Part shown: positions 55,268-57,537 of the stretch, piece after piece | How positions within the stretch are numbered: position 1 is the first letter of the stretch | How the letters are laid out: each line of letters begins with the position of its first letter | Source of the DNA: a virus | Virus record (IMG/VR): IMGVR_UViG_3300047444_000783 | Location: 45,587 to 109,586 of that record | DNA length: 64,000 nt | Direction: 5' to 3' (one strand) | Program-made: the position numbers and the translations under genes | Notes under the pieces: generated by a model | Databases searched by the model: none | Told to the model about the DNA's origin: nothing | The model's input: only the letters and a program-made list of their open reading frames with translations

Positions 55268-55296
55268 ACTTTAAATCCTTTTGTCCAGGATGTCAA
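55268..55296 (-). promoter_or_regulatory. Sigma70-like promoter of tRNA operon C
   Basis: TTGACA-17 bp-TAAAGT. Confidence 0.75.
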
Positions 55297-55368
55297 GCGC
55301 CTGCGGAGAATCGAACTCCGGATCGTCGTCTTAGGAGGACGCTGCTCTGTCCGCTGAGCTACAGGCGC
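55296..55368 (-). tRNA. tRNA-Arg(CCT)
   Basis: Cloverleaf. Confidence 0.88.
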
Positions 55369-55370
55369 GA

Positions 55371-55441
55371 TACCGAGGCTGGGAATCGGACCCAAATATC
55401 TGGATACACAGGCCAGCATTCTGCCATTGAATTACCTCGGC
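55371..55441 (-). tRNA. tRNA-His(GTG)
   Basis: Cloverleaf; no encoded G-1 or C73. Confidence 0.8.
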
Positions 55442-55444
55442 GCA

Positions 55445-55518
55445 TGCCAGCGGTGGGGTATGATCCCACAGCCCTCCGCTTAAAAGGCGGTTACTCTGTC
55501 CGTTTGAGTTACGCTGGC
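55445..55518 (-). tRNA. tRNA-Lys(TTT)
   Basis: Cloverleaf; A54/T58 T-loop. Confidence 0.85.
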
Positions 55519-55520
55519 GA

Positions 55521-55592
55521 TGCCACGGGTGGGGATTGGACCCACGACGCCCGGCTTTTCAGACCGGCGCTCTACCACTGAGCTACCGCGGC
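55521..55592 (-). tRNA. tRNA-Phe(GAA)
   Basis: Cloverleaf. Confidence 0.9.
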
Positions 55593-55625
55593 AAGCAGAT
55601 CGCGCGGTCATAGACCGCGTCTACA

Positions 55626-55698
55626 TGCTCGAGGGGAGAATCGGACTCCCGACACCCGGCTTATCAGACCGGAACTCTGACCACTGAGTTACTCGAGC
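55626..55698 (-). tRNA. tRNA-Ile(GAT)
   Basis: Cloverleaf. Confidence 0.9.
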
Positions 55699-55700
55699 GA

Positions 55701-55772
55701 CAGGGTGTAGCGGATTCGAACCGCTGATCTTCCGTTAGAGAGACGGAGGACTTGCCGCTAGTCGAACACCCC
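55701..55772 (-). tRNA. tRNA-Glu(CTC)
   Basis: TCCGT-CTCTCTA-ACGGA; T37. Confidence 0.82.
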
Positions 55773-55775
55773 AAG

Positions 55776-55846
55776 TAGCGCCGCGGAGAATCGGACTCCG
55801 ATCATCGGGTTGAAAGCCCGATTGCTTACCCTTGGCATACGGCGCC
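55776..55846 (-). tRNA. tRNA-Glu(TTC)
   Basis: Cloverleaf. Confidence 0.88.
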
Positions 55847-55864
55847 AAAATTATTCCAAAATTA

Positions 55865-55984
55865 TTCCCACGGTGAAGGTTAGCATCGCTCCTAATCCCT
55901 CATCCCCCCGTCAGCGATGATCGGGGTGCCCTTAACGGAGGCGCCTTGTCAGGCTGACACTTGACTCGTGTCTTGCCGTGGGAA
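55865..55984. ncRNA. Candidate 120-nt structured RNA inside the tRNA array
   Basis: 9-bp closing stem TTCCCACGG/CCGTGGGAA plus three internal hairpins. Confidence 0.5.
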
Positions 55985-55991
55985 CTTCAAG

Positions 55992-56065
55992 CGGAGATGA
56001 CCGGATTCGAACCGGCGATATCCTCATCGACAGTGAGGTGCCTTGAGCCGCTAGGCGACATCTCC
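55992..56065 (-). tRNA. tRNA-Asp(GTC)
   Basis: Cloverleaf. Confidence 0.92.
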
Positions 56066-56068
56066 AAG

Positions 56069-56140
56069 TGCGGTAGACGGGAATCGGACCCGCAATCTCT
56101 TCGTTGGCAACGAAGCGCCTTGCCGTTGGGCCACTACCGC
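56069..56140 (-). tRNA. tRNA-Gly(GCC)
   Basis: Cloverleaf. Confidence 0.9.
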
Positions 56141-56168
56141 AAACATGTCTAATCGTACATACTTCAAA

Positions 56169-56239
56169 TGCCTCGAGCGGGAATCGGACCCGCAGTCTCT
56201 GGTTGGAAGCCAGACGGTTTACCACTAACCGACCGAGGC
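56169..56239 (-). tRNA. tRNA-Gly(TCC)
   Basis: Cloverleaf. Confidence 0.9.
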
Positions 56240-56243
56240 GAAG

Positions 56244-56315
56244 TACCCGCGAGGCGACTCGAACGCCTATCATCCTGATTCGTAGTCAGGTGCCTATCCG
56301 TTAGACTACGCGGGC
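56244..56315 (-). tRNA. tRNA-Arg(ACG)
   Basis: Cloverleaf. Confidence 0.9.
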
Positions 56316-56319
56316 AAAG

Positions 56320-56395
56320 CTGGCAGGGTGGGTTTCGAACCCACATCTATTCCGGTTAACAGCCGGACGCATTACCGAATGTTTGCTACCTGCCA
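56320..56395 (-). tRNA. tRNA-Asn(GTT)
   Basis: Cloverleaf. Confidence 0.88.
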
Positions 56396-56396
56396 A

Positions 56397-56470
56397 TCGA
56401 TCCGGTGGGAGTCGGACCCACAACATTCCGCTTTCGGAGAGCGGTGCCCTGTCCATTAGGCGACGGATCG
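56397..56470 (-). tRNA. tRNA-Arg(CCG)
   Basis: Cloverleaf. Confidence 0.88.
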
Positions 56471-56473
56471 CAA

Positions 56474-56546
56474 CTGGGTCATCAGGCTTCGAACCTGAAA
56501 CATCCGCTTTCAGAGAGCGGCGCTCTGCCAGTTGAGCTATGACCCA
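56474..56546 (-). tRNA. tRNA-Gln(CTG)
   Basis: Cloverleaf; T1-A72. Confidence 0.9.
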
Positions 56547-56547
56547 A

Positions 56548-56620
56548 TGCTGTCCCGGGGCAACGATCCCCGAACCTACCGGGTAAGAGCCGGTTGCTCT
56601 GCCAGTTGAGCTAGGACAGC
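56548..56620 (-). tRNA. tRNA-Lys(CTT)
   Basis: Cloverleaf; A54/T58 T-loop. Confidence 0.85.
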
Positions 56621-56836
56621 TTATTCAATATATCCAGCAAGTTCGGCCGTGCAGAACGGACGGTCCGTTCTCTCCAGTTGATACCGGTCGAAAACATCTA
56701 ACAATTTCCGAAAGGCAGTACCATTTTCCCTGTCTTCCAATGAGGCAGTAACGAAAATCATAACCGCCGATTCTACACTCTTCCTGAGTAACCGCCGGTG
56801 GCGGCGCCTTTCCGCTCGCGGCTTCTTCTTTCTCAT
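56621..56836 (-). CDS. Small basic protein inserted in the tRNA array (71 aa)
   Basis: MRKKKPRAERRRHRRLL...; fills the gap between tRNA-Val and tRNA-Lys. Confidence 0.55.
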   Translation of the reverse strand: MRKKKPRAERRRHRRLLRKSVESAVMIFVTASLEDRENGTAFRKLLDVFDRYQLERTDRPFCTAELAGYIE

Positions 56837-56837
56837 A

Positions 56838-56910
56838 TAGCCCCTGGAGGCAACGATCCCCCAACCTCCCGGGTGTAGGCCGGGCGCTCTGCCGGTTGAG
56901 CTAAGGAGCC
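56838..56910 (-). tRNA. tRNA-Val(TAC)
   Basis: Cloverleaf; C33, A54/T58. Confidence 0.85.
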
Positions 56911-56917
56911 ATGTCAA

Positions 56918-56990
56918 AGCCAACGGCCGGCAACGATCCGGCAACATCCGGTTTACAGGACCGGCGTTCTGCCTATTGAACTACGTCGGC
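56918..56990 (-). tRNA. tRNA-Thr(TGT)
   Basis: Cloverleaf; C33, A54/T58. Confidence 0.85.
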
Positions 56991-56993
56991 GAA

Positions 56994-57058
56994 GGTCCAG
57001 CCAGTCTCCAGTAACTACCGTCCTAGGACGGCGCTCTACCAGTACATGGGGCCAGACC
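56994..57058 (-). other. Degenerate tRNA-like element
   Basis: 9-bp terminal stem, TGGTAGAGCG D-arm remnant, CCGTC-CTAG-GACGG arm, no T-loop. Confidence 0.5.
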
Positions 57059-57060
57059 AA

Positions 57061-57131
57061 AGCCACAGCCGGGAATTGAACCCGAGTATCTCGCTTACCA
57101 AGCGAGTGCCTTACCACTCGGCCACTGCGGC
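57061..57131 (-). tRNA. tRNA-Thr(GGT)
   Basis: Cloverleaf. Confidence 0.92.
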
Positions 57132-57134
57132 GAA

Positions 57135-57207
57135 AGCCAGCGGGGAGAATCGGACTCCCGACCTGTGCGTTACGAGTGCACTGCTCTACCAATTGAGCTA
57201 CGCCGGC
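57135..57207 (-). tRNA. tRNA-Thr(CGT)
   Basis: Cloverleaf. Confidence 0.9.
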
Positions 57208-57210
57208 AAA

Positions 57211-57282
57211 TTGCCCCGGGGAGAATTGGACTCCCGACCCTTGGCTTATGAGACCAGTGCTCTACCTCTGAGCTACGGGGCG
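57211..57282 (-). tRNA. tRNA with CAT anticodon (fMet / Met / Ile2 identity unresolved)
   Basis: Cloverleaf; C1xA72 mismatch; T31-G39. Confidence 0.85.
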
Positions 57283-57284
57283 AC

Positions 57285-57321
57285 AAAAAGAAAGGCCGAA
57301 ACCTTGTTCGGGTTTCGGCCT
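57285..57321 (-). terminator. Intrinsic terminator / attenuator directly upstream of tRNA operon B
   Basis: AGGCCGAAACC/GGTTTCGGCCT 11-bp stem followed by TTCTTTTT. Confidence 0.88.
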
Positions 57322-57346
57322 GGACTTTCCGGATTTTGCTGTCTGC

Positions 57347-57481
57347 TTATCCGGTAACCCCAGGCACGCGCGTACCCATGATATTTCGATCATGAGTGCG
57401 TTCGACCTGGTGTTTAAAAGACATAAGTATCTCGTATAATTGCCGACGGCCAGCGGTCTGACCGTCAGAGCAGAAAGGCAT
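57347..57481 (-). CDS. Putative leader peptide of tRNA operon B (44 aa, or 25 aa from ATG 57424)
   Basis: MPFCSDGQTAGRRQLYEIL-MSFKHQVERTHDRNIMGTRVPGVTG; lies between promoter and terminator. Confidence 0.7.
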   Translation of the reverse strand: MPFCSDGQTAGRRQLYEILMSFKHQVERTHDRNIMGTRVPGVTG

Positions 57482-57509
57482 TTCAGAACATCAACACAAG
57501 TAGATTCTG

Positions 57510-57537
57510 ATTATCCACAACTCGTGCTGGCTGTCAA
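57510..57537 (-). promoter_or_regulatory. Sigma70-like promoter of tRNA operon B
   Basis: TTGACA-16 bp-GATAAT; overlaps TTATCCACA. Confidence 0.72.

Follow-up and report, generated by a model that had tools for sequence, protein, structure and literature searches.

The minus strand of the 64,000-nucleotide stretch of phage DNA analysed here (the window) carries an operon, operon B, in which a promoter, a 25-codon open reading frame (ORF) and a terminator precede, in this order, 20 tRNA genes. Its parts are the following.

57510..57537, minus strand: predicted promoter P_B, TTGACA, 16-nt spacer and GATAAT; near-consensus sigma-70 type, 11/12 in a consensus scan
57443..57468, minus strand: 11-bp hairpin of the 5' leader (-18.2 kcal/mol; in the MFE and the centroid structure)
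57347..57424, minus strand: leader ORF, 25 codons (57350-57424) and TAA (57349-57347)
57284..57321, minus strand: intrinsic terminator, 11-bp stem (57321-57293) with 7 G-C pairs, 7-nt loop and T-run (-19.3 kcal/mol)
55296..57283, minus strand: block B, 20 tRNA genes (ARAGORN and Rfam)

The genes of block B are ordered Met, Thr (three), Val, Lys, Gln, Arg, Asn, Arg, Gly (two), Asp, Glu (two), Ile, Phe, Lys, His and Arg. Transcription from P_B is predicted to start near 57503, giving a leader of about 215 nt in the predicted transcript. A scan for promoters and terminators predicted no terminator inside block B and one weak promoter-like site (55877-55850); apart from this site, P_B is the sole predicted promoter for the 20 tRNA genes. 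The T-run of the terminator directly adjoins tRNA-Met (57283) and leaves no space for a further promoter between the two. The start of translation is uncertain from the sequence: the ATG at 57424 has no clear Shine-Dalgarno motif and is located within a weak hairpin, the promoter scan reported no second promoter nearer to it, and a second in-frame ATG at 57481 would give a 44-codon form. The hairpin at 57443..57468 lies inside this longer form and upstream of the 25-codon ORF.

Two further cassettes are found in the same phage.

58655..58835, minus strand: cassette A, promoter, near-leaderless 27-codon ORF and terminator
55154..55296, minus strand: cassette C, promoter and leaderless 31-codon ORF, no terminator

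Around and downstream of the -10 box, P_B and the promoter of operon A agree in 12 bases, and in A as in B the terminator hairpin adjoins the 5' end of the first tRNA. No predicted terminator separates blocks B and C, so that the gated unit is really one of 28 tRNAs and the block boundary is a choice.

Stable hairpins also occur between tRNA genes of the array, for example at 55594-55625 (z = -5.1), and these have no T-runs. Such structures, together with the position of the hairpins abutting the first tRNA in A and B, could suggest that the hairpin and T-run before tRNA-Met act in the processing or stability of the tRNA precursor, guiding or blocking RNase E, RNase P or exonucleases, and are not a regulated terminator. 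We consider this very improbable. The element at 57321-57284 has every sequence feature of an intrinsic terminator, at which the host polymerase should stop, and the T-runs are precisely what the inter-tRNA hairpins do not have; a processing role would moreover leave both the ORF and the competing fold described below unexplained. Elsewhere the phage places a terminator of like kind behind a lone tRNA-like gene (58911-58981), where it is a true stop.

Codon content of the leader ORFs

The first-pass annotation had described the leader ORF as a sampler of the amino acids served by the downstream block. Translation and codon counts bore this out: the ORF yields the 25 residues given there, which comprise every one of the 13 amino acids that the block serves (M, T, V, K, Q, R, N, G, D, E, I, F and H) plus S and P, thus 15 different ones, and A, C, L, W and Y are missing as claimed. 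The 44-codon form indeed uses 36 different codons and gains CGG, GAG, TGC, TAC, TTA and CAA. The caveat that AGG, AAG and ACA are missing was also correct, for both forms; the 25-codon ORF does not sample CGG and GAG either. Block-B tRNAs can read 21 of the ORF's 25 codons, which between them call on 16 of the 20 tRNAs. Sampling is thin, each amino acid being present one to three times and runs being absent.

This match was evaluated against random genome segments of equal length, using the best ORF of each segment. Leader B exceeded this null with p = 0.001 for decodable codons, p = 0.0015 for amino acids in the set and p = 0.0065 for the presence of all 13 amino acids. The probability that a 25-residue stretch from the genes of this phage has no A, C, L, W or Y is 0.0016. 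In cassette A, the ORF contains a run of Pro, Ala, Arg (AGA) and Trp codons, and the downstream tRNAs are Pro, Ala, Arg (TCT) and Trp (empirical p = 0.009 against random segments with best ORF). Cassette C, which is followed by tRNAs for Leu (three), Tyr, Ser (two), Cys and Gln, matches its block with p = 0.011 for codons and p = 0.0015 for amino acids. Combining the codon-level values of the three leaders against their own blocks by Fisher's method, in a hand calculation, gave p of about 1.5e-5. When leaders were scored against blocks in a 5 x 5 table that included two unrelated phages, the true pairing ranked top of the 120 permutations.

Competing folds of the leader RNA

The full leader of operon B folds with z = -5.2. 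Besides the terminator, two alternative hairpins and a sensing window are predicted.

57356..57414, minus strand: hairpin 1:2, predicted anti-antiterminator (-27.0 kcal/mol; in the MFE and centroid of the full leader)
57317..57367, minus strand: hairpin 2:3, predicted antiterminator (7 + 2 + 6 bp; -25.7 to -26.6 kcal/mol)
57380..57421, minus strand: predicted sensing window, codons 2-16 (footprint scan)

Hairpin 1:2, formed between the two ends of the ORF, was absent from the first-pass description; with it, the classical four-region layout is complete. For the antiterminator, the two pairings proposed earlier were both recovered, GCCUGG (57365-57360) with CCAGGC (57323-57318) and CCGGAU (57354-57349) with AUCCGG (57334-57329). 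They form one hairpin, which includes the stop codon and, as had been claimed, takes up the four basal nucleotides of the terminator stem (57321-57318). Its energy of -26.6 kcal/mol compares with -15.7 +/- 2.7 kcal/mol in dinucleotide shuffles; a single one of 2000 shuffles was equally stable, and none of them also paired the four basal terminator nucleotides.

The fold of this leader could also be taken to mean that the unit from promoter to terminator is a gene of its own, encoding a small structured RNA or peptide, with the tRNAs transcribed by incidental read-through and the peptide match due to chance or composition bias. The high degree of structure fits this idea, as do the two adjacent hairpins at the 3' end, an arrangement seen in many small RNAs, and trans-acting attenuator-derived small RNAs and leader peptides are known (PMC7968998). 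We nevertheless hold this explanation to be improbable, since the 20 tRNA genes have no predicted promoter of comparable strength other than P_B, and since chance would have to account for p of about 0.001 with leader B and of about 1e-5 with the three cassettes combined by hand. A role in trans would in any case supplement attenuation and not exclude it.

We then modelled the footprint of a ribosome on the leader. With the A site at codons 2-16, the predicted probability of the antiterminator was about 1; at codons 17-26 it was 0, the antiterminator being blocked, with a clean switch between codons 16 and 17. In the 15 codons of the resulting window, 12 of the 13 block amino acids are represented and 14 of the codons are in the set; the chance of at least 12 different block amino acids in 15 codons is P of about 1e-4. 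All three Gly codons lie outside this window, among codons 17-25.

The first-pass annotation relied on an antiterminator able to compete with the terminator, and here the outcome was mixed. The hairpin is stable beyond shuffled sequences, but the terminator state is lower by 2.9 kcal/mol (-36.8 versus -33.9 kcal/mol), which makes its competitiveness in folding marginal. The antiterminator excludes just 4 of the 11 terminator pairs, and nucleation of the remaining upper 7 bp can proceed whatever the antiterminator does. In the equilibrium calculation, the basal terminator pairs formed with P of about 0.8 for most stalls and fell to 0.2-0.5 at codons 3-6 only. Given the 4-nt overlap and the preference for the terminator state, the switch would have to be kinetic. 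In the trp operon, the terminator is also more stable than its antiterminator, and the choice is likewise kinetic.

Among the sister cassettes, the leader of A has alternative folds, and the equilibrium footprint model revealed no clean logic for operon A. No significant fold was found for the leader of C.

Parallels in other phages

The sister cassettes, two unrelated uncultured phages and the phiCbK-like Caulobacter phages show the same design. In one uncultured phage (locus L082), a leader rich in Ile, Ser and Thr codons and a terminator (-25 kcal/mol) precede tRNAs for Ile, Ser, Thr, Ser and Thr; in the other (locus L085), a leader rich in Phe, Ser (AGY), Cys and Thr codons and a terminator precede tRNAs for Phe, Ser (GCT), Cys and Thr (CGT). 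The cultured phiCbK/Caulobacter system has the same layout as operon B. In six phiCbK-like phages, the leader ORF is open; the sole internal indel measures 9 nt, and 1-nt indels lie outside it. Substitutions are spread evenly over codon positions (8, 8 and 5), and replacements occur mostly among Leu, Thr, Ala, Pro, Lys and His, which are already frequent there. Compensatory changes are seen in three stem pairs. Just ahead of the ATG, at the position that corresponds to 57443-57468 in leader B, these leaders also have a hairpin, with one compensatory pair. These leaders and those of L082 and L085 share with leader B the layout and the codon-to-tRNA match, and their sequences are unrelated to it; they sample 3-6 amino acids for blocks of 4-10 tRNAs, in contrast to 13 for 20 in leader B.

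A further array-bearing record, G060, is the only one of its kind among 55 of the records with A1 homologues, and no tRNA array was present within 9 kb of A1 homologues at 80 loci. The G060 leader is leaderless and has no clean terminator, and three of its first four codons are those of leader A: the first two are common to leader A, the G060 leader and the phiCbK leader, and the fourth to A and G060.

No close relative of the phage itself was found in the collections searched, and leader B thus has no comparative support. Single-protein scans of IMG/VR with the neighbouring 206-aa and 525-aa proteins returned no relatives, the 206-aa protein had no homologue among 5.8 billion proteins, and a 70-aa ORF had no match in a metagenome scan. 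At the DNA level, similarity to cultured phages was limited to generic tRNA matches. The sequencing runs listed for the phage included no RNA run. The DNA runs, from soil and rhizosphere, contained the same phage only; contigs covering parts of the leader were free of differences in it, and none covered the whole. A scan for relatives based on the odd T-arm yielded chance matches only.

The leader class is not universal, being missing in T5 and several other arrays. In T5, the small ORFs of the tRNA region, which we considered as leaders, were rejected as ordinary proteins of 50-100 aa with no terminators and no codon match. At the sites inspected in four other arrays (G006, G007, G009 and G010), no clear leader was found; in G007, the terminator is that of the preceding gene, and the first tRNA has a plain promoter ahead of it. 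An automatic screen, in which tRNA blocks were split at gaps of more than 100 nt, gave 7 of 76 blocks at p < 0.05, which is not convincing; this weak yield of a naive screen indicates that results hinge on how operons are delimited.

These parallels bear on the idea that a protein, either a phage-encoded processive antiterminator like lambda Q or N or a host factor, lets polymerase pass the terminator of operon B, or that this terminator is simply leaky and tunes output down, with the ORF irrelevant in either case. The lambda late promoter is strong and followed within about 200 nt by the terminator tR', which must be overcome, and Q protein loads at the promoter. Operon B resembles this arrangement in its strong promoter with a terminator about 215 nt on, the 12 bases shared by P_A and P_B could be a loading site, and the antiterminator overlap is weak. 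The lambda Q unit differs in using a protein antiterminator and in having neither ORF nor codon logic. A factor or a leaky terminator does not predict that three leaders match the codons of their own blocks, that the match recurs in unrelated phages, or that phiCbK-like leaders retain their frame without conservation of the peptide, and we regard this explanation as unlikely.

Proposed attenuation of operon B

We consider it fairly probable that operon B is under ribosome-mediated transcription attenuation of the trp/his/ilv type, in a highly multivalent form applied to tRNA genes. Computation established the parts with their coordinates, as well as the codon match and the alternative folds. 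Like the enterobacterial attenuators (trpL, hisL, pheL, leuL, ilvGMEDA and thr), leader B has a promoter-proximal ORF whose codons name what the operon supplies, the 1:2, 2:3 and 3:4 folds and an intrinsic terminator before the structural genes, and in both a stall in region 1 would free the antiterminator while a ribosome at the stop codon would cover region 2. The enterobacterial operons encode biosynthetic enzymes, whereas operon B encodes tRNAs, so the signal here would be tRNA supply. Enterobacterial leaders use runs of one to three amino acids, as in ilvGMEDA (Ile, Leu and Val) and thr (Thr and Ile); leader B samples 12-13, mostly once each. It is further distinguished by an antiterminator that overlaps the terminator by 4 nt only and by being phage-borne, and we claim no sequence kinship.

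In the scheme that we propose, host RNA polymerase would initiate at P_B and transcribe the leader of about 215 nt, and a ribosome would translate the 25-codon ORF; we infer this translation, the start used, the synchrony of polymerase and ribosome and the effect of a stall on termination. If all codons are read fast, the ribosome would reach the last codons or the stop and cover region 2, hairpin 2:3 would not form, and the 11-bp terminator would fold and stop transcription just before tRNA-Met. If a cognate charged tRNA is scarce, a stall at codons 2-16 would break hairpin 1:2 and free region 2. Hairpin 2:3 would then form first and hold the base of the terminator, and the polymerase would enter the 20 tRNA genes and, because no terminator intervenes, continue into block C. 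The newly made tRNAs would relieve the stall and shut the gate again. Block-B tRNAs are probably made mainly when ribosomes stall for want of them. A likely purpose would be tRNA replacement when the host pool fails, for example upon anticodon nuclease cleavage or host shut-off.

The earlier view of the leader as an OR gate, opened by a stall at any one codon, holds in part. The attenuator architecture and the codon sampling agree with it, but in the footprint model only codons 2-16 free the antiterminator, so that roughly 15 codons alone appear able to act as sensors and "any codon" overstates their range. Modelled stalls at codons 17-25 cover the antiterminator and favour termination. In our reading of the model, stalls in the 19 extra codons of the 44-codon form should leave hairpin 1:2 intact and likewise lead to termination.

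T-box riboswitches also link tRNA status to terminator read-through before translation-related genes; a T-box binds one uncharged tRNA through a specifier loop and the T-box sequence, with no ribosome involved. Direct sensing of this type, with the codons as specifier triplets, would have the same outcome, an uncharged or missing tRNA altering termination. It seems extremely unlikely for operon B, in that cmscan (E up to 1, positions 53500-60000) returned no match to T-box or other regulatory RNA families, a T-box reads one specifier and not fifteen, and the triplets sit in a single open frame starting with ATG.

An accessory tRNA array under stress-type control, and in this respect like the gate proposed for operon B, is the trn operon of Anabaena sp. 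PCC 7120, a long array that stays silent until translation is impaired (PMC8421152). The main text of that paper uses none of the words attenuator, leader and terminator. We found no published description of leader-peptide control of tRNA genes in a literature search that covered the subscription journals in part.

A more far-reaching version of ribosome-mediated attenuation, which we put forward tentatively and think possible rather than probable, is that leader B is an OR gate of single-codon resolution for about 15 tRNA species, corresponding to its 15-codon window, and that it forms with A and C a three-channel surveillance of the whole tRNA pool, acting as a phage counter-defence sensor derived from a classical attenuator. 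If this is true, loss of one tRNA species, for instance to a host anticodon nuclease, would switch on a replacement set of 20 (to 28) tRNAs.

Why phages carry tRNA genes and how these are controlled is still debated; the genes have been proposed to serve codon compensation, to replace host tRNAs that have been degraded, or to evade defence systems that cleave tRNAs (PMC10264068, PMC11555353). If tRNA operons are preceded by a translated sensor, this would show that phages monitor how fast each codon is decoded and produce tRNAs as the need arises. Leader-peptide attenuation, known from amino-acid metabolism, would then reach the translation apparatus itself, and the known number of amino acids sensed per attenuator would rise from three to about a dozen.

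Layout of the tRNA array

The virus record that contains the window is 109,586 bp long and was judged complete, and the phage originates from soil and rhizosphere metagenomes. It encodes a T5 A1-type DNA transfer protein (52450-54027), for which the best identity to a cultured phage was no higher than 36%. ARAGORN detected 32 tRNA genes, all on the minus strand, at 54482-58652. A 33rd member of the array, missed by ARAGORN, is a tRNA-like gene of 71 nt with a CAT anticodon (58911-58981, minus strand; Rfam, 36.8 bits). Promoters and terminators split the array into a single tRNA-like gene, block A, a 206-aa gene, block B and block C.

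Transcription signals and units of the array
59017, minus strand: strong sigma-70-type promoter (promoter scan)
58843-59017, minus strand: single-gene unit just upstream of cassette A, with consensus-like promoter, tRNA-like gene and 15-bp terminator
58876-58843, minus strand: strong intrinsic terminator (terminator scan)
near 58835-58806, minus strand: promoter before leader A (P_A), read by eye
58687-58665, minus strand: strong intrinsic terminator (terminator scan)
57537, minus strand: strong sigma-70-type promoter (promoter scan), here P_B
57321-57293, minus strand: strong intrinsic terminator (terminator scan)
55296, minus strand: strong sigma-70-type promoter (promoter scan)
Block A: Pro, Ala, Arg-TCT, Trp
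Block B: 20 tRNAs
Block C: 8 tRNAs

P_A and P_B have 12 identical bases (58806-58817 and 57508-57519, minus strand), extending over the -10 box into the start of the transcribed sequence. Between the stop codon of the 206-aa gene and the -35 box of P_B, which it adjoins, lies an 8-bp hairpin (57540-57559, minus strand); since it lacks a T-run, transcripts of cassette A, the promoter and ORF before block A, may read into leader B. The terminator scan predicted no terminator between blocks B and C, so that a gate in leader B would also feed block C.

Many tRNAs of the array (54482-58652, minus strand) have unusual T-loops, such as TCCGATT in several of them. Lys-CTT, Val-TAC and Thr-TGT have the T-loop TCGTTGC, and a scan of IMG/VR found no other tRNA carrying this T-arm. 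The tRNA-Trp (58329-58420, minus strand) measures 92 nt, with a long extra arm of a kind not usual in tRNA-Trp. Within block B, a very basic 70-aa ORF (56621-56833, minus strand) lies between tRNA-Val and tRNA-Lys; it had no PHROG match and no relative in a metagenome scan. For the 144-nt gap between tRNA-Asp and tRNA-Glu (55847-55990, minus strand), folding gave a closed multi-branch structure (-58 kcal/mol, z = -3.8) with no match in Rfam, possibly a stable RNA of unassigned function. Two hairpins lack a T-run and may thus be processing signals: a long one of 70 nt between two tRNA-Thr genes (56991-57060, minus strand) and a tight one of 39 nt between tRNA-Phe and tRNA-Ile (55594-55625, minus strand; z = -5.1).

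Codon content of the leader ORFs

Translation of the 25-codon leader B ORF (57424-57347, minus strand) yielded the 25 residues reported in the first-pass annotation. As claimed there, every one of the 13 amino acids served by block B occurs in the ORF, together with Ser and Pro, and the missing five are Ala, Cys, Leu, Trp and Tyr; the in-frame 44-codon form uses 36 different codons. This longer form starts at ATG 57481. The caveat that AGG, AAG and ACA are absent was also borne out. By standard wobble rules, block B tRNAs can read 21 of the 25 codons, and 16 of the 20 tRNAs have at least one codon in the ORF.

The match was assessed by scoring the best ORF of each promoter-to-terminator segment, since the choice of ORF is free, against the best ORFs of 4000 length-matched segments drawn at random from the phage genome. 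Leader B matched block B with p = 0.001 for codons, 0.0015 for amino acids and 0.0065 for the presence of all 13. The sister leaders gave p = 0.009 for leader A against block A, and p = 0.011 for codons and 0.0015 for amino acids for leader C against block C. The three codon-level values, combined by hand with Fisher's method, gave about 1.5e-5, and each leader scored best with its own block. Such a match is not predicted by one of the main rival explanations, namely, that termination is factor dependent or leaky and the ORF incidental.

No clear Shine-Dalgarno sequence precedes ATG 57424, which sits in an A+U-rich stretch; with gene starts crudely called, only about a quarter of those in this phage have one. 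In leaders A and C, 10 and 7 nt, respectively, separate the -10 box from the start of the ORF, and both are therefore probably leaderless. The first 13 residues of leader C (55222-55260, minus strand) are all block B amino acids, with a chance of about 0.003 by our own calculation from a background of 0.646, and AAG and ACA, two block B codons of the three absent from leader B, are among its first 13 codons.

Predicted folding of leader B

From its predicted start to the terminator, leader B folds with -81.4 kcal/mol (z = -5.2), and four hairpins were predicted.

Hairpins of leader B
57468-57443, minus strand: 5' hairpin, -18.2 kcal/mol
57414-57356, minus strand: hairpin 1:2 (anti-antiterminator), pairing the start and end of the ORF with each other, -27.0 kcal/mol
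57367-57317, minus strand: hairpin 2:3 (antiterminator), with the stop codon inside, -25.7 kcal/mol
57321-57293, minus strand: terminator (3:4), -19.3 kcal/mol

Both helices quoted in the first-pass annotation are present, as parts of a single hairpin that holds 4 basal bases of the terminator stem. CCAGG occurs in both regions 1 and 3, as rival partners for GCCUGG of region 2. In its predicted folds, leader B has the classical four-region layout, of which the first-pass annotation had covered only half. Dinucleotide shuffles of the 2:3 hairpin had a mean of -15.7 +/- 2.7 kcal/mol; 1 of 2000 was as stable, and none of 2000 was as stable with the terminator base paired as well. Thus, chance pairing does not account for this hairpin. 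Another main rival explanation takes the hairpin before tRNA-Met to be a processing hairpin and not a regulated terminator.

We modeled a 30-nt ribosome footprint at each codon, on an RNA cut off ahead of the terminator's 3' arm. The probability of the 2:3 helix was about 1 with the A site at codons 2 to 16 and 0 from codon 17 to the stop, so that the structure would set a sensing window of 15 codons. This window covers 12 of the 13 block B amino acids, and all but one of its 15 codons belong to the set (probability, about 1e-4). Region 2 occupies the last nine codons, among them all three Gly codons.

Only 4 of the 11 terminator pairs are excluded by the antiterminator. With each state enforced, the terminator state (-36.8 kcal/mol) was 2.9 kcal/mol lower than the antiterminator state (-33.9 kcal/mol), and at full-length equilibrium the basal terminator pairs formed with a probability of about 0.8 at most stall positions. 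Given this weak overlap, the favored terminator state and the persisting basal pairs, the switch would have to be kinetic; the terminator can in any event start to fold from its upper part.

Comparable leaders and possible function

Close relatives were sought with proteins, alignment, two k-mer scans, one metagenome and a sequencing-run index, and none was found beyond the same phage and a distant relative with a tRNA array (record G060). There, a consensus promoter is followed after 7 nt by a leaderless 34-codon ORF, which has three of its first four codons in common with leader A. Its final codons specify Tyr, Asp, Asn and Gly, and genes for tRNA Gly, Tyr, Asn and Asp lie downstream. No clean terminator follows this ORF.

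Unrelated phage contigs with tRNA arrays were found through a T-arm k-mer. At two loci (L082 and L085), a strong terminator lies directly before a tRNA, and an ORF ending just upstream uses the amino acids and specific codons of the tRNAs that follow. At L085, every Ser codon is AGY and the downstream Ser tRNA has the anticodon GCT. The empirical p values were 0.02 for L082 and 0.004 for L085, for cases picked after inspection of about a dozen arrays. When five leaders were scored against five blocks, the true pairing ranked first among the 120 permutations. The T5 tRNA region had no such leaders, and several other arrays had none at the sites inspected. A naive automatic screen, in which any gap over 100 nt divided a block, gave no significant result; its outcome depends on how operons are delimited.

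In another unrelated phage (L107 in record G008, about 930-1120), a consensus-like promoter and an ORF precede a 16-tRNA block beginning with Trp, Ser-GCT, Ile-TAT and Thr-TGT. The ORF uses the rare ATA together with Trp, Ser-AGT, Arg-CGA, Thr-ACA and Val-GTA codons; as in cassette C, there is no canonical terminator. The arrays of L085 (about 10492-10566) and of a further locus, L102 (reverse strand, about 4849-4928), have tRNA-like genes whose anticodon is CTA (amber-reading).

The phiCbK-like Caulobacter phages have a 45-codon ORF, then a terminator, annotated in GenBank for phiCbK, CcrSwift and Karma, and then tRNA Pro, Pro, Lys, Ser, Leu and others (empirical p = 0.013). Throughout six such phages (92-100% identity), the ORF is open; its sole indel is of 9 nt, and indels outside it are of 1 nt. 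Substitutions are even across codon positions (8, 8 and 5), replacements fall mostly among Leu, Thr, Ala, Pro, Lys and His, already frequent in that leader, and three stem pairs show compensatory changes. Judged from sequence, the phiCbK-like pattern is as would be expected of a sensor ORF and not of a functional peptide.

All parts described in the first-pass annotation are present; its interpretation, a sensor opened by a stall at any one codon, is supported only in part. We favor, with moderate confidence, ribosome-mediated attenuation sensing the decoding of about 15 codons for 12 amino acids as the most likely mechanism. Besides the two main rivals named above, leader B may be an independent gene for a small RNA or peptide. 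Leader B would share the working layout of the multivalent ilv and thr attenuators but differs in its target, the number of amino acids sampled and its small antiterminator overlap. A T-box identity was rejected, as the Rfam search gave no T-box match.

The literature searched gave no account of tRNA genes under the control of a leader peptide. The nearest published case found is a tRNA array of Anabaena induced under translational stress, which is controlled by promoter repeats that its authors read as repressor sites (PMC8421152; PMC10272220); the words attenuator, leader and terminator do not occur in the main text of PMC8421152. Phage tRNAs have been described as an escape from anticodon nucleases, and such an escape would be a plausible purpose for a gate in leader B (PMC10264068, PMC11555353).
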